The position numbers and the translations under genes were made by a program. Below are positions 4,781 to 13,755 of a stretch of DNA of 14,772 bases, one piece after another. The stretch is taken from IMG/VR virus record IMGVR_UViG_2923323785_000003; one strand, 5' to 3'. The notes under the pieces are model-generated. The model was not told where the DNA came from. It saw nothing but the letters and a program-made list of their open reading frames with translations, and searched no databases. Origin of the DNA: a virus (taxonomy: Duplodnaviria; Heunggongvirae; Uroviricota; Caudoviricetes). The stretch's first letter is position 1, and each line of letters begins with the position of its first letter.

Positions 4781-4833
4781 CGGCGGCAGAGCAGTCACGG
4801 AGTAAAACTGATACCGCCAAACGTCACCAGAAA
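4781..4833 (-). ncRNA. dicF: DicF small regulatory RNA (ftsZ-targeting sRNA of the dicB operon)
   Basis: Reverse complement of 4781-4833 reads TTTCTGGTGACGTTTGGCGGTATCAGTTTTACTCCGTGACTGCTCTGCCGCCG followed by a T5 run, which matches my recollection of the 53-nt DicF sequence and its terminator. Sits just upstream of dicB on the same strand. Confidence 0.75.
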
Positions 4834-7541: not shown

Positions 7542-7818
7542 ACGTCGCCGCTGGGTTAACGAGAAATACACTCGCTGGGTGAAGACACAGCCGTGTGCGT
7601 GTTGTGGTAAGCCAGCCGACGATCCCCATCACCTGATTGGTCATGGTCAGGGCGGAATGGGGACAAAATCTCACGATATTTTCACGCTACCGCTGTGTCG
7701 GGAGCATCACAACGAGCTTCATGCGGATCCGCTGGCGTTCGAAGAAAAGCATGGTTCTCAGGTTGATTTAATTTTTCGTTTTCTTGATCACGCCTTTGCA
7801 ACTGGCGTGCTTGGGTAA
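7528..7818 (+). CDS. Small Cys/His-rich putative zinc-binding HNH-like protein
   Basis: 96-aa ORF with CACCG...HH...LCREHHNELH motif pattern. Its start overlaps the stop region of the upstream ORF in a different frame. Confidence 0.55.
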   Translation: MKRPKRRRWVNEKYTRWVKTQPCACCGKPADDPHHLIGHGQGGMGTKSHDIFTLPLCREHHNELHADPLAFEEKHGSQVDLIFRFLDHAFATGVLG

Positions 7819-7830
7819 AAGAGGTGACTG

Positions 7831-8205
7831 ATGCTCATAGATTTGGTTTTACCTTACCCGCCGACGGTGAACACTTACTGGCGACGCCGTGGCAGCACAT
7901 ATTTTATCTCGGAGGAGGGAAAGCGTTATCGCCGGGCTGTGGCGCTTATTGTTCGCCAGCAGCGGCTGAAATTAAGCCTGTCCGGAAGGCTGGCGATAAA
8001 GGTGATTGCAGAGCCACCGGATAAGCGTCGTCGCGACCTGGACAATATCCTGAAAGCACCGCTGGATGCGCTGACGCATGCGGGAGTGTTAATGGACGAT
8101 GAGCAGTTTGATGAAATCAATATCGTTCGTGGTCAGCCAGTATCTGGTGGACGTCTGGGGGTGAAGATTTACCCCATAATGCATGAAGAGCAGGTCAAAA
8201 AATGA
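7831..8205 (+). CDS. rusA: RusA-family Holliday-junction resolvase
   Basis: 124-aa ORF with LPYPPTVNTYWR N-terminus and the RRRDLDNILKAPLDALTHAGVLMDDEQ motif typical of RusA (recalled E. coli RusA has RRRDLDN...KA.FDALTKAG...DD). GAGGTG Shine-Dalgarno upstream. Position before Q is typical. Confidence 0.85.
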   Translation: MLIDLVLPYPPTVNTYWRRRGSTYFISEEGKRYRRAVALIVRQQRLKLSLSGRLAIKVIAEPPDKRRRDLDNILKAPLDALTHAGVLMDDEQFDEINIVRGQPVSGGRLGVKIYPIMHEEQVKK

Positions 8206-9023
8206 AACTGGAAGATTTACCGAAATACTACTCCCCAAAATCCCCTTGCCTGACCGATGCATCGGCCTCAACGTCAAAAGATGCGCTGAGTATCACTGAT
8301 GTGATGGCCGCGCAGGGCATGACACAGAATCGGGCTGAGATGGGGTTTTCTGCGTTCCTGGGGAAAATGGGCATCAGTATGAATGACAGGGCGCGGGCAA
8401 CAGAATTACTGGCAGATTATGCACTCAGTCGGTGCGATCGTGTGGCGGCGTTGAGAAAACTTCCGGCAGAAATAAAACCGGTAGTGATGCGCATTATGGC
8501 TTCGTACGCTTTTGAGGATTATGCCCGCAGCGCAGCGAGTAAAAAGCAGTGCCCTTGTTGCTATGGGGAAAAATTTATTGAAAGCGTAGTTTTTACAAAC
8601 AAGGTCCAGTATCCGGATGGTAAGCCGCCGGTATGGGCAAAGTGTACGAAAGGTGTGTATCCGTCTTACTGGGAAGAATGGAAAAAAGTCAGGGAGGTGG
8701 TAAAAGTTGCCTGTCCGGAGTGTGGCGGAAAGGGTGAGGTTTCCACCGCCTGTAAGGATTGCCGTGGGCGTGGTGTCGCCATTCACCGTGAAGAGTCGGT
8801 AAAACGTGGTATGCCTGTTATCAGAGACTGCCAGCGTTGTGGTGGTCGTGGCTATGAAAGACTACCATCAACGGAGGCATTTAATGCTATATGCGAGGTG
8901 ACAAACCAGATAACACGCGCGTCATGGGAAAAAACAGTTAAGAAATTCTATGATGCGCTGGTGACCCGGTTTGATATTGAAGAAGCATGGGCTGAGCGGC
9001 AGTTAAAAAAGGTAACTAGGTAA
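8202..9023 (+). CDS. Late-gene antiterminator Q (QuuQ-like, with Cys-rich zinc-finger repeats)
   Basis: 273-aa ORF whose ATG overlaps the rusA stop (ATGA). Repeated CxxCxGxG-type motifs (CPECGGKG, CKDCRGRG, CQRCGGRG). Immediately followed by a candidate late promoter and intrinsic terminator, then tRNAs and lysis genes. Confidence 0.7.
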   Translation: MKLEDLPKYYSPKSPCLTDASASTSKDALSITDVMAAQGMTQNRAEMGFSAFLGKMGISMNDRARATELLADYALSRCDRVAALRKLPAEIKPVVMRIMASYAFEDYARSAASKKQCPCCYGEKFIESVVFTNKVQYPDGKPPVWAKCTKGVYPSYWEEWKKVREVVKVACPECGGKGEVSTACKDCRGRGVAIHREESVKRGMPVIRDCQRCGGRGYERLPSTEAFNAICEVTNQITRASWEKTVKKFYDALVTRFDIEEAWAERQLKKVTR

Positions 9024-9028
9024 CAAGG

Positions 9029-9056
9029 TTGATTTTTCCGGAATCTGTGGTAAATT
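9029..9056 (+). promoter_or_regulatory. Candidate late promoter (pR'-like) downstream of Q
   Basis: -35 TTGATT (9029-9034), 16-nt spacer, -10 TAAATT (9051-9056), followed about 50 nt later by an intrinsic terminator, as in lambda pR'/tR'. Confidence 0.4.
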
Positions 9057-9104
9057 CGTCATAACGATGGGCTTTTTATGCCTGACGTTAGAAGAGTTTC
9101 TACA

Positions 9105-9129
9105 ACCCGCCGCCGAGCGGGTTTTTTAT
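9105..9129 (+). terminator. Intrinsic terminator (tR'-like) read through under Q antitermination
   Basis: Stem ACCCGC / GCGGGT with 6-nt loop, followed by TTTTTTATT. Confidence 0.6.
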
Positions 9130-9166
9130 TGCGGAATTAATTACGGACCGTTATTATTCTGCTCAC

Positions 9167-9242
9167 GGCCCTTTAGCTCAGTGGTGAGAGCGAGCGACTC
9201 ATAATCGCCAGGTCGCTGGTTCAAATCCAGCAAGGGCCACCA
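9167..9242 (+). tRNA. tRNA with CAU anticodon, Ile2-type (ileX/ileZ-like; tRNA-Met cannot be excluded)
   Basis: 76 nt. 7-bp acceptor stem GGCCCTT/AAGGGCC, D-arm GCTCAGTGGTGAGAGC, anticodon loop CTCATAA, T-arm GCTGGTTCAAATCCAGC, 3' ACCA. Close to recalled E. coli ileX. Confidence 0.85.
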
Positions 9243-9342
9243 TCACAAACCGCCATTAGCTTATCAGGAAGAGCAGACGACGCGATAACAGGGTTGTTGG
9301 TGCGGGGGCGGGTCCCCGATGGCGGTCCATTATCGGTATTCA

Positions 9343-9419
9343 GCGTTGTTAGCTCAGCCGGACAGAGCAATTGCCTTCTAAGCAATCGGTCACTGGTTCG
9401 AATCCAGTACAGCGCGCCA
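9343..9419 (+). tRNA. tRNA-Arg (anticodon UCU, reads AGA/AGG)
   Basis: 77 nt. Acceptor stem GCGTTGT/ACAGCGC (one G-U pair), D-arm GCTCAGCCGGACAGAGC, anticodon stem ATTGC/GCAAT with loop CTTCTAA, T-arm ACTGGTTCGAATCCAGT, 3' GCCA. Confidence 0.85.
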
Positions 9420-9529
9420 TATTCATTCTTCCAGATTCCTTCCGGCAGAGCCTTATACTGAAATATACCTGGCTCAGGATCTTGTTGAAAATATTATATG
9501 TTTGTCAAAAATAAAAGTTCTGTCAAGTA

Positions 9530-9883
9530 TTGATTGAGTGTTTGTTATACCGTCTAATGGTTTTTTCAGCATTAAATATTTATCATTCATATGGTGTGGG
9601 TAGAGTGAATATTGATGAGGCGTCGGGGTGTTTCATCCTTAGGCAGCGTATTGATATAGTCAATGCAGCACGAGCAAAGGCCTTCAGCCGTTTGACAGTT
9701 TTGTTTTGTACTCCTGATCGTCTTTCGGGAAGAGACGTTATTATTCTGAATAGTGATGCTATACAGAGGGTTTGCGATGAGTTCATGGTTGCTAATTCAG
9801 AATTATTTGCTCTTGTTCAGGAGTACAACAGAATAGCCAGGACCTGTGGTATGGATGAACTTCGGATTACTCATCTGGGGTAG
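9530..9883 (+). CDS. Hypothetical protein (cargo ORF downstream of the tRNAs); start uncertain (TTG at 9530 or ATG at 9557)
   Basis: 117-aa ORF. C-terminal half looks protein-like; no convincing Shine-Dalgarno; no family recognised. Confidence 0.3.
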   Translation: MIECLLYRLMVFSALNIYHSYGVGRVNIDEASGCFILRQRIDIVNAARAKAFSRLTVLFCTPDRLSGRDVIILNSDAIQRVCDEFMVANSELFALVQEYNRIARTCGMDELRITHLG

Positions 9884-10357
9884 ATACATATCTGGATTAT
9901 CACCTGTTACGGTAAAAAGTTATTGCTTACTGTTTTTGTGAATGGCATTGCAGCAGCCGGATAATGTCAGTGCTGGCTGACGGTGTGCTGGTGGCGGGTG
10001 TGGTGGTTATTGCTTTCCCGTTGCTGAAAAAGAAAACGCCGGACTGTTAGCCGGGTATCAGTTAGCGGGAGAAATTTTTAAATACTTCACAATTCAGGCG
10101 GTTGACTGTTGTCTGGTTTGCGGGGAGTTTGTTAAAAGAAACTGGCATGGTGAATCCCCCTGTGCGGAGGGGCAATCAGCGAGTAGGTATATGGGATAAT
10201 CGCGGATTCAGGTGCTGGTACTGAATTCACCGGGAGGCACCCGGCACCATGCACTTCAATAGATTCTCTCCACATTATGGATATTCTTTCAGAATATCCC
10301 ACGCAGACTTTGTGTAAATGTTAACAAATGTGCGTTTTATTTGATCTGATTCGCTGT

Positions 10358-10387
10358 TTGAGCGTCCAAAACAACGGTATATATAAT
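10358..10387 (+). promoter_or_regulatory. Candidate sigma70 promoter for the first lipoprotein gene
   Basis: -35 TTGAGC (10358-10363), 17-18 nt spacer, -10 TATAAT (10382-10387), about 30 nt upstream of the start at 10417. Confidence 0.4.
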
Positions 10388-10416
10388 CCTTTACTATATG
10401 ACATATGTGAGGAAAA

Positions 10417-10845
10417 ATGGGTTTTCGTAGCGCATCAATTCTTACGTTGATTATTAGTGGGATTATTATCGGGTGCACTGATGCTGTATCGACAAATTAT
10501 CATGACCGTACATCATATTACTCCGATAAAGCAATAGAGACACAGTATGTGAGTTCATCTGAACGTACTTCTGATGTTAGTGAGGATATCCGTCTGTATG
10601 CCCATCAAATCAAGAGCGCCATCGAAAAACAGTTCGGGGATGCGAGTAAGTATTCAGGAAAAGAGTGTACACTGAGAATGCATATGGCCCCGAATGGCCT
10701 TCTACTGGAGGTTAAAAGAGAAAGTGGAGACCTCGATTTATGTCGTGAAGCGATGAATGCGATAAAGAATGCTGATATACCTGCCCCCCCTTCGCCGGAA
10801 GTATATAAAGTATTTCAAAATGGGGTGCTGGATTTTAAACCCTGA
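10417..10845 (+). CDS. Lipoprotein with C-terminal TolA domain-III-like domain
   Basis: 142-aa ORF with GAGGA Shine-Dalgarno. Lipoprotein signal peptide with lipobox IIGC. C-terminal ~87 aa (IRLYAHQIKSAIEKQFGDASKYSGKECTLRMHMAPNGLLLEVK...LCREAMNAIKNADIPAPPSPEVYKVFQNGVLDFKP) align with my recollection of the E. coli TolA C-terminus (...YAGQIKSAIESKFYDASSYAGKTCTLRIKLAPDGMLLDIK...LCQAALAAAKLAKIPKPPSQAVYEVFKNAPLDFKP). Confidence 0.85.
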   Translation: MGFRSASILTLIISGIIIGCTDAVSTNYHDRTSYYSDKAIETQYVSSSERTSDVSEDIRLYAHQIKSAIEKQFGDASKYSGKECTLRMHMAPNGLLLEVKRESGDLDLCREAMNAIKNADIPAPPSPEVYKVFQNGVLDFKP

Positions 10846-10995
10846 TATTTATTGTTTTGTAATAAACGGTTTCGGCTTAGGTTTGTTCTGACACAACTAC
10901 GGCACTGAGCTAAATTTAGCGGATAGTCAGCTCTGAGCCAGTGGCGGACGTAACAACTACTATTGCTGAGATTTTAATGGATTGAGGAGCAAGAA

Positions 10996-11391
10996 GTGGG
11001 ATTAAAGAAAATCGTTATGTTGACTTTTTGGGTCGGTTTTGTTGCGGGATGCACACCTTTACACCCTTCAGATTGCCACAAAACTACTGCTACAGGTAGT
11101 TGCAGTTCAGGACGCTGGGATGATCAGGATGAATGGGGGGCGCAAGCGCGGGGAATCAGAGCTGCAATTAATGCCAAACTTGATGAGCCGCATAACTGGA
11201 AAGGGAAAAAATGCAGGTTGCATATGGAATTCTCTCAGGATGGCACGGCGTTAAAAATATCTACCAGTAACGGTGATAAAGCCTATTGCGAAGCGATAAA
11301 GTCCGCAGCTCATAAAGCCAAATTTCCGGCCTTCAACAATCCGGAAGTCTACAGAGATTTTCAGAAATCTGGCTTTGACATGCGAGGTTAG
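10996..11391 (+). CDS. Second lipoprotein, diverged paralogue with TolA domain-III-like C-terminus (GTG start)
   Basis: 131-aa ORF starting at GTG with a GAGGAG Shine-Dalgarno 6 nt upstream. Signal peptide with lipobox VAGC. C-terminal region (KGKKCRLHMEFSQDGTALKI...YCEAIKSAAHKAKFPAFNNPEVYRDFQKSGFD) shares the two-Cys spacing and PEVY..FQ motif with the upstream paralogue. Confidence 0.8.
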   Translation: MGLKKIVMLTFWVGFVAGCTPLHPSDCHKTTATGSCSSGRWDDQDEWGAQARGIRAAINAKLDEPHNWKGKKCRLHMEFSQDGTALKISTSNGDKAYCEAIKSAAHKAKFPAFNNPEVYRDFQKSGFDMRG

Positions 11392-11516
11392 CTCTTCAAT
11401 TACTATATCTCATTCATAGCAAACTGACAGATTTGATGATGTTCTATATACGAAACCTGTGATGTCAAGTCTGAGCTAATACAAATAAACATAATATCAG
11501 AGAAATACATTTTATT

Positions 11517-11543
11517 AGCTCGCTACGGCGAGCTTTTTATATT
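11517..11543 (+). terminator. Intrinsic terminator closing the lipoprotein transcription unit
   Basis: Stem AGCTCGC / GCGAGCT with loop TACG, followed by TTTTTATATT. Confidence 0.65.
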
Positions 11544-11642: not shown

Positions 11643-11858
11643 ATGAAATCCATGGACAAAATTTCAACAGGCATTGCCTACGGCACCTCCGCAGGCAGTG
11701 CTGGCTACTGGTTTTTACAGCTGCTCGATAAAGTCACGCCCTCACAGTGGGCAGCAATAGGTGTGCTGGGTAGCCTGGTATTTGGCCTGCTGACGTACCT
11801 GACAAACCTTTATTTCAAGATTAAAGAAGACAAGCGTAAGGCTGCACGGGGAGAGTAA
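11643..11858 (+). CDS. Class II holin / pinholin of the S21 / EssQ / EssD type, with dual-start motif (MKSM)
   Basis: 71 aa from the ATG at 11643, preceded by GGAGGTGAGG. Sequence [71 protein letters not shown] closely matches recalled phage 21 S21 and E. coli EssD/EssQ holins. Confidence 0.85.
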
Positions 11859-12232: not shown

Positions 12233-13174
12233 ATGAGCGCAAAAATCAAATACGCCCTGTCAGCTGCTGTTCTGGCGCTGATTGCTGCAGGCGCGTCTGC
12301 TCCTCAGATACTTGACCAGTTTCTGGACGAAAAAGAGGGTACCGGAGTCGGAAGTTGCCGGACCTTGCAGATGAAGGCGCATTACAGAAATGGTGGTCTG
12401 TTCTACCGTTCTTCAAGAGACGGTTATGGTTTTGAGGAAGACTGGGCAGAAGTTTATACCTCGAAAAATCTTCCACCAGAAAGCTACCCAGTCGGCGCAC
12501 CAATCCCGTGGCCATCAGATACCGTTCCGTCTGGTTATGCCCTGATGCAGGGGCAGACTTTTGACAAATCTGCCTACCCGAAACTTGCAGCCGCTTATCC
12601 GTCAGGCGTGATCCCTGATATGCGTGGCTGGACGATTAAGGGCAAGCCCGCCAGTGGTCGTGCCGTATTGTCTCAGGAACAGGACGGCATAAAATCGCAT
12701 ACCCACAGCGCCAGCGCATCCAGTACTGATTTGGGGACGAAAACCACATCGTCGTTTGATTACGGCACTAAATCCACGAATAACACTGGTGCGCATACCC
12801 ATAGTTTAAGTGGCAGCACGAATGCAGCTGGTAATCACAGCCATAGAGATGGCCGTCGATTTAACCCCAGTGTTTTTAAAGATACTTATCAATATGGTTA
12901 TACAAGCTCAGGTCAAAATACCTGGGGTGTGCAAGGCTCAGTAGGTATGTCTACGGGGGCGTTAGCTAATACCAGTACAGATGGTAACCATAGCCACTCA
13001 CTGTCCGGCACAGCAGCATCTGCAGGTGCACACGCACATACTGTCGGTATTGGTGCACACACGCACTCCGTTGCGATTGGTTCACATGGACACACCATCA
13101 CCGTTAACGCTGCTGGTAACGCGGAAAACACCGTCAAAAACATCGCATTTAACTATATTGTGAGGCTTGCATAA
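12233..13174 (+). CDS. stf: Side tail fibre protein, C-terminal receptor-binding portion (lambda orf-314 / StfQ-like; N-terminally truncated relative to full-length Stf)
   Basis: 313-aa ORF with [50 protein letters not shown] and repeated HxH motifs (HTHS, NHSH, HAHT, HGHT) typical of lambda/T4-type fibre tips. Stop overlaps the tfa start (TAATG). No Shine-Dalgarno, and it sits directly after ydfR-like, consistent with a deletion remnant. Confidence 0.8.
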
Positions 13175-13755
13175 TGGCATTCAGAATGAGTGAACAACCA
13201 CGGACCATAAAAATTTATAATCTGCTGGCCGGAACTAATGAATTTATTGGTGAAGGTGACGCATATATTCCGCCTCATACAGGTCTGCCAGCAAACAGTA
13301 CCGATATTGCACCGCCAGATATTCCGGCTGGCTTTGTGGCTGTTTTCAACAGTGATGAGGCATCGTGGCATCTCGTTGAAGATCATCGGGGAAAAACCGT
13401 CTATGACGTGGCTTCCGCCGACGCGTTATTTATTTCTGAACTTGGCTCGTTACCGGAAAATGTCACCTGGTTATCGCCGGAAGGAGAATATCAGAAGTGG
13501 AACGGCACAGCCTGGGTGAAGGATACGGAAGCAGAAAAACTATTCCGGATCCGGGAGGCGGAAGAAACAAAAAACAGCCTGATGCAGGCAGCGAATGAGC
13601 ATATTGCGCCACTTCAGGATGCTGTAGATCTGGAAATCGCAACGGAGGAAGAAAACTCGTTGCTGGAAGCCTGGAAAAAGTATCGGGTGTTGCTGAACCG
13701 TGTTAATACAACAACTGCACCGGATATTGAATGGCCAGTAGCACCTATAGGGTAA
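13174..13755 (+). CDS. tfa: Tail fibre assembly protein Tfa (lambda Tfa / TfaQ-like)
   Basis: 193-aa ORF. N-terminus [39 protein letters not shown] and C-terminus [24 protein letters not shown] closely match recalled lambda Tfa. Confidence 0.92.

Follow-up and report, generated by a model that had tools for sequence, protein, structure and literature searches.

A portable promoter-plus-tRNA cassette with exchangeable morons behind it at the probable late-gene control junction of a lambda-like prophage of Escherichia coli

The region described here, positions 9,029 to 9,419 of a 14,772-nucleotide stretch of phage DNA (the window), is very probably the junction where a lambda-like prophage controls its late genes; in this view a tRNA cassette belongs to the phage backbone and exchangeable morons lie behind it. 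The Q antiterminator gene, the late promoter pR', the terminator tR', tRNA-Ile2(CAU) and tRNA-Arg(UCU) reported by the initial annotation are all found where it had placed them (Table 1), and the likeness it had drawn to the order Q, pR', tR', tRNAs of Stx phages turns out to be homologous, not just analogous: positions 8200-9127 match the Q/pR'/tR' part of the Stx2a phage Stx2_EH1910 at 88.6% and positions 9127-9427 match its ileZ-argN-argO block at 88%. This arrangement of Q, tRNAs and morons is already known, having long been described in Stx and other lambdoid phages, and the antiterminator and both tRNAs of the locus already have RefSeq annotations. The analysis gives a clearer picture of the slot, with a self-contained promoter-plus-tRNA cassette shared by the majority of complete E. 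coli genomes, and its by-products may outweigh the main finding: a conserved gene that RefSeq lacks, a widespread decayed form of a tRNA gene and a pair of lipoproteins with TolA domains.

The window matches E. coli strain MB06101 at 100%, and the prophage, which lies beside rspB, derives from an mEp460-like phage by a deletion specific to the strain. The joint of the lysozyme/tail-fibre deletion occurs in one of 5,426 genomes, which speaks against the prophage being an old, fixed cryptic element. Because the late operon is truncated in this strain, little is left for the Q circuit to control.

Table 1. Features of the late-control junction and of the moron slot (positions in the window).
Feature	Position	Strand	Description and basis
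Q antiterminator gene	8202..9023	+	273 aa; Q-lambda family, Pfam PF03589 at 6.2e-55
Late promoter pR'	9029..9056	+	-35 TTGATT 9029-9034, 16-nt spacer, TGn-extended -10 TAAATT 9051-9056
Predicted start A9063 and -10-like sigma-70 pause-inducing element	9063..9071	+	AACGAT, then GGG; lambda identity
Intrinsic terminator tR'	9104..9129	+	Terminator scan; 7-bp GC-rich stem, 6-nt loop, hairpin 9104-9123, T run
Promoter-like element of the tRNA cassette	9129..9157	+	TTGCGG, 17 nt, TATTAT; ends 9 nt 5' of the tRNA-Ile gene
tRNA-Ile2 gene, ileZ orthologue	9167..9242	+	ARAGORN, Rfam; anticodon CAU
Decayed third tRNA, argN position	9250..9329	+	Alignment with intact tRNA-Arg(UCG) of relatives
tRNA-Arg(UCU) gene, argO orthologue	9343..9419	+	ARAGORN, Rfam 68 bits, RefSeq
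92-codon gene, GTG start	9605..9883	+	PHROG 2873 at 3.8e-70; without RefSeq annotation
Short DUF3927/TciB-like ORF	9964..10050	+	Pfam PF13064 at 8.6e-16, PHROG 1470, RefSeq CDS; 28 aa as annotated
STnc100-family sRNA block	10075..10306	+	Rfam RF02076, 114 bits (gathering score 47), hit 10116-10306
First cargo unit	10358..10845	+	Promoter-like site 10358-10387, GAGGA ribosome-binding site, lipoprotein gene 10417-10845 (142 aa)
Second cargo gene, 131-aa lipoprotein	10996..11391	+	Lipobox VAGC; Pfam TolA at 1.3e-14; RefSeq start 11017
Terminator-like hairpin and T run	11517..11540	+	Terminator scan; closes the cargo unit before the holin gene
Holin gene	11643-11858		Pfam PF04971

Besides its Pfam assignment, the Q protein matches the structure of Q-lambda in the PDB (7UBM_Q at 1.5e-40; 4MO1 also matched) and lambda Q itself in BLASTP (31% identity, E=2e-39, 68 gap positions). 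An insertion of about 66 amino acids brings its CXXC motifs to four, and the DnaJ_CXXCXGXG match in the protein (28.4 bits) falls under the curated cut-off of 32.7. Directly 3' of Q lies the promoter, of which direct reading of the sequence gives TGgTAAATT at 9048-9056. It shares with lambda pR' the -10 hexamer and the spacing downstream of it, and AACGATGGG (9063-9071) is the same as +1 to +9 of lambda pR', at the same distance of 6 nt from the -10 hexamer; the element is also conserved in Stx2_EH1910. Since pR' falls below the threshold of a generic consensus promoter scan, its assignment rests on homology. The spacer differs in sequence from that of lambda, where Q-lambda binds, as expected for a diverged Q. 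With an intrinsic terminator separating this promoter from the late genes, the locus possesses the Q homologue, the adjacent promoter with its pause element and the terminator that characterize a Q-lambda-type late antitermination unit.

The tR' hairpin appears in the RNA fold of the leader (minimum free energy of -20.6 kcal/mol, z=-2.3) and is conserved in Stx2_EH1910 and in O157 TT12A. An RNA of about 65 nt (9063-9129) is predicted to end at this terminator, and in 9000-10400 a permissive Rfam scan assigned the leader to no family, Trp_leader (25.4 bits) and isrK (18 bits) both staying below their gathering scores. The mechanism of Q, the pause, the length of the leader RNA and the expression and modification of the tRNAs are all predicted by analogy, the pausing at the AACGAT element in particular from the established biology of lambda. 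In this scenario pR' would be constitutively active: without Q, RNA polymerase would pause at AACGAT and terminate at tR', leaving the short RNA of about 65 nt; when present, Q would be loaded at the paused complex and would permit read-through of tR', of the tRNAs and of the cargo with its terminator, into the lysis genes. A constitutive pR' terminated at tR' has been described (PMC7547250).

Directly 3' of tR' there appears to be a portable cassette composed of a sigma-70-type promoter, tRNA-Ile2(CAU), a decayed tRNA-Arg(UCG) and tRNA-Arg(UCU). Both hexamers of the promoter-like element are kept in seven of eight loci, regardless of whether a terminator, a methylase gene or DNA of no common origin stands upstream; in S51, homology starts at the -35 hexamer, and the same promoter sequence is present in Sakai Sp5. 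In Sp5, a primary transcription start site (TSS) has been mapped between tR' and stx2AB, from which the tRNAs seem to be transcribed (PMC7547250). Here too the assignment rests on homology, because the element is under the threshold of the generic consensus scan. Having its own promoter, the cassette could be expressed not just at the time of late transcription but already in the lysogen. This promoter-like element and the decayed third tRNA had been missed by the initial annotation.

Both predicted tRNA genes hold in ARAGORN and in Rfam, the tRNA(CAU) gene with 72.5 bits for a gathering score of 29. In tRNA-Ile2, the CAU anticodon reads AUA once modified to lysidine. The gene of the window, labelled tRNA-Ile in RefSeq, is identical to ileZ of Stx2_EH1910, differs from K-12 ileY (tRNA-Ile2) at 6 of 76 positions and from the elongator metT at about 22, and has the acceptor stem of ileY, including the pairs C4-G69 and C5-G68; the CAU anticodon is therefore carried on an Ile2-type, not a Met-type, body. 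Modification of C34 to lysidine by TilS and charging with isoleucine are predicted for it from the sequence. The tRNA-Arg(UCU), which is one base from argO of Stx2_EH1910 and about 20 from host argU, decodes AGA and possibly AGG. The two tRNAs would duplicate the scarce host decoders of AUA and AGA/AGG.

The 100 nt that seem to form a spacer between the two tRNAs (9243-9342) are in fact a degraded argN, recognized by comparison with the intact tRNA-Arg(UCG) of Stx2_EH1910, Sakai, 611R1 and 30821_1. The remnant retains the acceptor stem and the CCA end and folds into a cloverleaf-like shape; its D loop has a 4-nt insertion, its anticodon arm is replaced and its T loop is damaged. Neither ARAGORN nor Rfam, even at E<=10, calls a tRNA in 9243-9342, and the alternative middle tRNA is uncalled by ARAGORN even with an intact T arm. 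Of the three intact tRNAs of the ileZ-argN-argO array of Stx phages, the window has ileZ and argO intact and argN as a remnant. This two-tRNA form is common, with 1,665 records that match the block with at least 95% identity, and the decayed argN is in itself a widespread tRNA allele.

What follows the cassette varies from one locus to the other. Behind it we found stx2AB, stx2e, a methylase, IraM, esterases, TerB, DUF6645 or no cargo, with at least eight different contents among the loci examined, which bears out the earlier description of the slot as a cargo hotspot. Homology blocks with Stx2_EH1910 break at 9127, 9427, 10087 and 10253, and in the slot a conserved block of the STnc100 family stands between two positions of variable content. 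This block is present in all the compared slots (directly 3' of stx2B in Stx2_EH1910), and its homology across slots covers 10075-10253 and always stops at 10253; it probably serves as a recombination anchor. Recombination would exchange the morons at such conserved anchors, namely the tRNA cassette, the STnc100 block and the holin gene; Stx phages carry stxAB and then iraM/nanS-p where the prophage carries a small gene with DUF3927 and then two TolA-domain lipoproteins. Presence or absence among related phages and a deviating composition, two marks of a moron, are both observed here: contents differ among loci sharing the same flanks, and the GC content of the cargo is 41-42%, against an average of 46% for the window.

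The stx-equivalent position (9420-10074) is occupied by the 92-codon gene and the DUF3927 ORF, in the place of stx2AB of Stx2 phages. The absence of toxin genes noted previously is consistent with tblastn searches of the window with Stx2A, Stx2B and Stx2eA, in which the best E value was 0.75; with no Stx homologue found and without stxA and stxB in its slot, the prophage is not a Stx-converting phage. The ORF 9530-9883, which is absent from RefSeq, could have been spurious, but this is contradicted by diverged homologues of the 92-codon gene (54-60% identity) and by a dN/dS of 0.29 with an excess of third-position changes.

The lipoprotein pair occupies the second variable position, not the stx-equivalent one. 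Both genes encode lipoproteins, as had been proposed. The first has the lipobox IIGC and a TolA C-terminal domain (Pfam TolA at 2.4e-23; 60% identity to E. coli TolA domain III) and matches PHROG 5772 over its full length; in RefSeq the gene is labelled a partial tolA pseudogene. The second, 29% identical to the first, has a more diverged TolA C-terminal domain (PDB 1S62 at 5e-9). The promoter-like site 10358-10387 scores 10/12 and a terminator-like site is called at 11517-11534, and the scan counts are similar to those of shuffled sequences (10 versus 6.1, and 4 versus 2.6 for terminator-like sites). PADLOC gave no model matching the cargo proteins, and literature searches on prophage TolA-domain lipoproteins, including wider searches on TolA, colicins and phages, found no study.

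The initial annotation had gone further and read the tRNAs and this particular cargo as co-adapted, the translation of the cargo needing the phage tRNAs and both travelling together, a reading that we find unlikely. Its codon counts are exact (3 AUA and 2 AGA in the 142 codons of the first lipoprotein gene; 2 AUA, 2 AGA and 1 AGG in the 131 codons of the second). Counting ATA, AGA and AGG together, the enrichment that it claimed stands in comparison with structural genes and host genes and fails in comparison with the phage backbone: the two lipoprotein genes, with 3.6-3.7% rare codons, exceed the structural genes (3.7% versus 1.1%, p=0.001) and the flanking host genes (0.4%), but do not differ from the backbone of the window (2.7%, p=0.22) or from the early genes of the intact relative mEp460_ev081 (p=0.36). 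They rank 11th and 13th of 48 genes, behind the integrase (4.9%) and other backbone genes, and their counts are near the expectation from GC content (5 observed versus 4.8 expected, and 5 versus 3.3).

In favor of co-adaptation, the 92-codon gene, the first one behind the tRNAs, has an unusual richness of matching codons, 8 out of 92 (P=0.007 given its GC content, uncorrected), and when it is included the cargo reaches 4.6%, against the 2.7% of the backbone (p=0.03); for stx2A, which fills that position in Stx2 phages, the figure is 7.2%. Against this, a homologue with 57% identity has 3 of 92, with one site common to both, and other cargos of the same slot (stx2B, TerB, esterases and DUF6645) have 0-1.3%. 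Any coupling of the 92-codon gene with the tRNAs would be weak and local. The distribution speaks against co-adaptation as well: the cassette is found in 3,060 of 5,426 complete E. coli genomes, at 7,597 places and up to 13 per genome, whereas the two-lipoprotein cargo is found in 775 genomes, which makes the cassette about ten times commoner, and it also sits directly 5' of holin genes without any cargo.

The richness in rare codons extends to the non-structural genes of the phage in general, and for that reason provides no evidence of a coupling between tRNAs and cargo. In mEp460_ev081, rare codons amount to 3.1% in early genes, 3.05% in lysis genes and 1.1% in structural genes; ATA and AGA are the third and fourth most over-used codons of non-structural versus structural genes, with 15.9 versus 4.4 per 1000 for ATA and 10.7 versus 3.0 for AGA, and 3.3 and 0.8 in the flanking host genes (a small sample of four genes). 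AUA and AGA/AGG are among the codons used several-fold more by non-structural (early, lysis and accessory) genes than by structural or host genes. Since the tRNAs match codons over-used across the non-structural genes, the cassette seems to serve the phage broadly, not one cargo, and it fits a codon-compensating tRNA set, with respect to the entire phage and not to the cargo in particular.

Equally improbable is a view of the tRNA genes as passengers without function or as scars of recombination, left for instance by tRNA-targeted integration, which persist only through their place between selected genes. The decay of the middle tRNA and the existence of truncated cassettes, with the Ile gene only or with argO cut as in 640R1, would agree with such an origin, and in a recent preprint the tRNA hits lying no more than 10 kb from Pas sRNA genes encoded by prophages are interpreted as leftovers of sites where prophages had inserted. 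However, the cassette is internal in intact phages (mEp460_ev081 and Stx2 phages), not at prophage ends or beside the integrase; it has a conserved promoter 5' of the tRNAs, with a TSS mapped in Sp5; and ileZ and argO are 99-100% conserved, against about 88% for the surrounding blocks. This difference, seen with Stx2_EH1910, suggests purifying selection, which is not absolute, given the decayed tRNA of the window and the truncation of other copies.

Certain phage tRNAs restore translation when host tRNAs have been cleaved, and colicin D is an anticodon nuclease which cuts tRNA-Arg. That the tRNAs of the window are mainly spare parts against such toxins or defences, and not a codon compensation, is very improbable: this background, the one anticodon-loop base by which Sakai argO2 differs from the window copy and the Lys, Thr and Gly tRNAs of related arrays, which are not rare-codon readers, would favor it, but the anticodon loop of the window tRNA-Arg (CUUCUAA) is that of host argU, with no escape change visible, the loop of tRNA-Ile2 is that of ileY, and the specificities of the tRNAs fit the codons over-used by the phage.

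It is the cargo and not the tRNAs which constitutes the unexplored part. A possible though doubtful proposal is that the two TolA-domain-III lipoproteins, anchored in the outer membrane, act as periplasmic decoys that bind the ligands of host TolA, with, as a weaker companion, a tuning of the gene 9605-9883 to the adjacent tRNAs. The ligands could be group A colicins, the g3p of filamentous phages or the N-terminus of TolB, all of which need host TolA, and if this were true the lysogen would be tolerant to colicins or to Ff-type phages.

Compared with known systems, the junction shares with the Q/pR'/6S RNA/tR' unit of lambda the homology of Q, the -10 TAAATT, the 6-nt spacing, the sequence AACGATGGG and a downstream intrinsic terminator. 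It differs by a leader of about 65 nt instead of 194 nt, by the insertion in Q that brings its CXXC motifs to four, by an unrelated promoter spacer and by its tRNA genes, which lambda does not have at the corresponding site. The predicted leader RNA has in principle the same origin as StxS, the pR'-to-tR' transcript of Stx1 and Stx2a phages (PMC7547250), that is, a short RNA made in the lysogen from a constitutive pR' and ended at tR', but the leader that yields StxS is 258 nt long and belongs to another type of Q/pR'. With positions 9029-9126 of the window, typical Stx2a phages have no DNA in common, and homology begins at 9127. Late-region morons of lambdoid phages (bor, lom, stx, nanS-p and iraM) likewise lie between Q and the lysis cassette, with a lower GC content and a variable occupancy; the moron of the window is a pair of TolA-domain-III lipoproteins, whose promoter- and terminator-like sites are consensus matches only.

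Also close is the ileZ-argN-argO array found 5' of stx in 933W, Sakai Sp5 and Stx2a, Stx2c and Stx2e phages. Its naming and history follow database annotations and general background on these phages; the names ileZ, argN and argO occur in Stx phage and Sakai database records, and literature searches on these names and on tRNA, rare codon and stx2 found nothing relevant. The array occupies the same place, after Q/pR'/tR' and before the moron slot, and the window agrees with it in ileZ, in argO to within a single base of the Stx2_EH1910 copy and in the promoter-like sequence upstream. It differs by the decayed argN, by the absence of stxAB after the cassette and by the position of the cassette, which abuts tR' in the window, whereas about 300 nt lie between them in Sp5 and a methylase module in Stx2_EH1910.

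The initial annotation had recognised a Q antiterminator gene, a late promoter, a terminator, tRNA-Ile2(CAU) and tRNA-Arg(UCU), in the order that precedes the toxin genes of Stx phages, and all five were located at the described places by ARAGORN, Rfam, Pfam and comparison with lambda. The feature is real and belongs to a known, already annotated kind of module; the proposed coupling of the tRNAs to the downstream cargo does not hold up.

Compared with lambda Q, the Q protein of the window carries an insertion of ~66 amino acids (residues ~114-181) rich in CXXC motifs, giving four such motifs in total, three of them CXXCXGXG. Whereas lambda Q has a single zinc finger, the window Q resembles the two-zinc central domain of DnaJ, although the Pfam DnaJ match itself lies under the curated cut-off. 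The late promoter pR' shares its -10 hexamer, its spacing and its start and pause element (AACGATGGG, beginning six bases after TGgTAAATT) with lambda pR' without a single mismatch. The predicted leader RNA has no sequence kinship with the regulatory sRNA StxS or with lambda 6S RNA and gave only sub-threshold matches in Rfam (Trp_leader, 25.4 bits; isrK, 18 bits). The data establish the sequence elements and their homology, the modular way in which they are distributed, and the codon statistics. By analogy with lambda and Stx phages, pR' would fire constitutively, the polymerase would make a sigma-dependent pause after the start, and termination at tR' would yield an RNA of ~65 nt, with Q-dependent read-through of tR' expected on induction; the tRNAs would be expressed in lysogens from their own promoter and the CAU tRNA would be modified to lysidine.

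Features of the late-region module and its cargo (positions in the window)
Feature	Position	Strand	Evidence and details
Q antiterminator gene	8202-9023	+	PF03589 at 6e-55; Q-lambda structure 7UBM at 1.5e-40; 31% identity to lambda Q
Late promoter pR'	-35 TTGATT 9029-9034, 16 nt, then TGgTAAATT	+	likeness to lambda pR'
Predicted pR'-to-tR' leader RNA	9063-9129	+	~65 nt; 3' end formed by hairpin and U run
Terminator tR'	9104-9129	+	7-bp GC-rich hairpin and T run
Promoter-like element of the cassette	TTGCGG 9129-9134, 17 nt, TATTAT 9152-9157	+	ends 9 nt before tRNA gene
tRNA(CAU)	9167-9242	+	ARAGORN; Rfam 72.5 bits (threshold 29)
Decayed third tRNA, argN position	remnant 9250-9329 in gap 9243-9342	+	aligns with tRNA-Arg(UCG), argN of Stx phages
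tRNA-Arg(UCU)	9343-9419	+	ARAGORN; Rfam 68 bits (threshold 29)
Gene after the tRNAs (core)	9605-9883	+	GTG start, 92 codons; without RefSeq annotation
STnc100-family sRNA match	10075-10306	+	Rfam 114 bits
First lipoprotein gene	10417-10845	+	GAGGA ribosome-binding site; upstream promoter-like site; lipobox IIGC
Second lipoprotein gene	10996-11391	+	lipobox; 29% identical to first; more distant from TolA
Terminator-like hairpin	11517-11534	+	closes lipoprotein unit

The tRNA cassette includes two elements that the initial annotation had missed, its own promoter-like element and a decayed third tRNA in the 100-nt gap. At every position the CAU tRNA agrees with ileZ of an Stx2a phage; it differs at 6 positions from K-12 ileY (tRNA-Ile2), with an identical acceptor stem, versus about 22 from elongator metT; RefSeq labels it tRNA-Ile. 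The UCU tRNA is one base off argO of Stx2_EH1910, the Stx2a phage used for comparison, and about 20 off host argU. The argN remnant, which neither ARAGORN nor Rfam called, keeps its acceptor stem and CCA end, has a 4-nt D-loop insertion and a swapped anticodon arm, and lacks TTCGA in the T loop; its RNA still folds into a cloverleaf-like shape. Across prophages this position has two alleles, the canonical tRNA-Arg(UCG) and one with the D-loop insertion and replaced anticodon arm. In an Stx2e prophage the second allele, labelled 'tRNA-OTHER' by RefSeq, has an intact T arm, whereas in the window the damage extends to the T loop. The decayed allele is widespread, and the two-tRNA form is common, with at least 95% identity to the block in 1,665 records.

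Both promoter-like hexamers are kept in seven of eight loci regardless of the upstream context, which may be a terminator, unrelated DNA or the gene of a methylase. The same promoter-like sequence occurs in the Sakai prophage Sp5, and homology with strain S51 starts at the -35 hexamer. Altogether the cassette was found in 3,060 genomes, at 7,597 places. In related prophages (loci L010, 2501-2811, and L011, 3532-3841) this site, immediately ahead of the lysis genes, is taken by other arrays of four tRNAs, Ile(CAU)-Arg(UCU)-Thr(UGU)-Gly(UCC) and Ile(CAU)-Lys(UUU)-Thr-Gly, and not every tRNA in them reads rare codons.

The window represents a lambda-like Escherichia coli prophage. Its bases 8200-11500 are matched in strain MB06101 (100%) and in strain 55989 (99.9%); the MB06101 copy adjoins rspB and extends from the integrase gene to tfaQ. 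The intact phage mEp460_ev081 has the same 3.7 kb (99.1% identity), whereas the window copy has lost the remainder of its lysis cassette, along with the structural genes, by a deletion that joined a truncated lysozyme gene to a tail-fibre gene fragment at 12340/12341. Of 5,426 complete E. coli genomes only MB06101 has this joint, which marks the deletion as recent and strain-specific. Rfam also identified DicF (4781-4832, minus strand, 72.5 bits) beside dicB/ydfD, and IS009 (13517-13715, plus strand, 212 bits) within the tail-fibre assembly gene tfaQ.

Comparison of twelve loci resolved the slot between the cassette and the holin gene into two positions of variable content on either side of a conserved block of ~180 bp (10075-10253), the 5' part of the STnc100-family match. 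The first position, after tRNA-Arg, holds stx2AB, stx2e, TerB with DUF3927, or nothing, and in the window the RefSeq-unannotated gene with a short DUF3927 ORF; the second, before the holin gene, holds iraM with an esterase, DUF6645, DUF1737, or nothing, and in the window two TolA-domain lipoproteins. Since the contents of both positions vary, the slot had rightly been called a cargo hotspot; morons are known to cluster in lambdoid late regions (PMC8065619). All slots compared contain the block itself, some loci in two copies, and it also lies immediately 3' of stx2B. The homology never extends past 10253, an end point suggesting that the block serves as a recombination anchor. On the opposite strand, RefSeq annotates a pseudogene fragment at 10135-10275.

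The ORF directly after the tRNAs is a real gene. It matches PHROG 2873 (4e-70), has homologues of 54-60% identity and is under purifying selection: against a 57%-identical homologue, dN/dS is 0.29 and changes are in excess at third positions. At the homologous locus L017, its counterpart adjoins an IS3-family element, an AraC-type regulator gene and another TolA-domain gene.

The genes at the second position encode two tandem outer-membrane-type lipoproteins built of the TolA C-terminal domain. The first shares 60% identity with E. coli TolA domain III over its C-terminal 86 residues; although marked by RefSeq as a partial tolA pseudogene, it has a full-length phage-family match, a ribosome-binding site and a lipobox. 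Copies of the second with 87% identity are carried by large plasmids (about 91-108 kb), among them those of O157:H7 strains. Because colicins A and N, phage g3p and TolB all target TolA domain III in the periplasm (PMC3365938, PMC4339652), the two proteins may plausibly serve as decoys against colicins or filamentous phage. We found no study of such prophage lipoproteins, and no PADLOC model matched the cargo proteins.

The initial annotation had proposed that this cargo is enriched in the rare codons read by the tRNAs and co-adapted with them. Its codon counts for the lipoprotein genes were exact, and both proteins have lipoboxes. Counting ATA, AGA and AGG, these genes reach 3.6% (10/275 codons) versus 2.7% in the window backbone (76/2,842; p=0.22), and per-amino-acid tests were also non-significant. 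In mEp460_ev081 they reach 3.7%, compared with 3.1% for early genes (p=0.36), 3.05% for lysis genes and 1.1% for structural genes (p=0.001); flanking host genes stand at 0.4%. Among the 48 genes of that phage they come 11th and 13th by rare-codon fraction, which falls as gene GC rises (r=-0.60), and a logistic fit on GC expects 4.8 and 3.3 rare codons where 5 and 5 are observed. Other cargos of the slot range from 0% (stx2B) through 0.7% (TerB) and about 1.2% (esterases and DUF6645) to 7.2% (stx2A), and the lipoprotein pair occurs in 775 genomes versus the 3,060 of the cassette. For the phage as a whole the tRNAs do suit the demand, ATA and AGA being the third and fourth most over-used codons of non-structural relative to structural genes. 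These codon and distribution comparisons therefore indicate that the cassette matches non-structural genes in general, not this cargo in particular.

One point favours the proposed co-adaptation: the unannotated gene has 8 matching codons of 92, versus 2.8 expected from GC (P=0.007 before correction for about 50 genes). With it added, the cargo reaches 4.6% (18/393), nominally above the window backbone (p=0.03) but not above early genes (p=0.085). Its diverged homologue has 3/92 matching codons, with one site in common only; there is no conserved dependence on them.

The comparison with Stx phages was correct, and the likeness is one of homology, not analogy. No Stx homologue was found in the window, in agreement with the reported absence of toxin genes. 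Stx2_EH1910 matches the Q, pR' and tR' region (8200-9127) at 88.6% and the cassette (9127-9427) at 88%, with a methylase module inserted exactly at the terminator end. Typical Stx2a phages with another Q type have DNA in common only from 9127 onward, which makes the cassette a module of its own, distinct from Q, pR' and tR'. Downstream, Stx2_EH1910 carries stx2AB in place of 9428-10086, with homology returning directly 3' of stx2B (10087-10253); the unannotated gene and DUF3927 thus stand where stx2AB stands in Stx2 phages.
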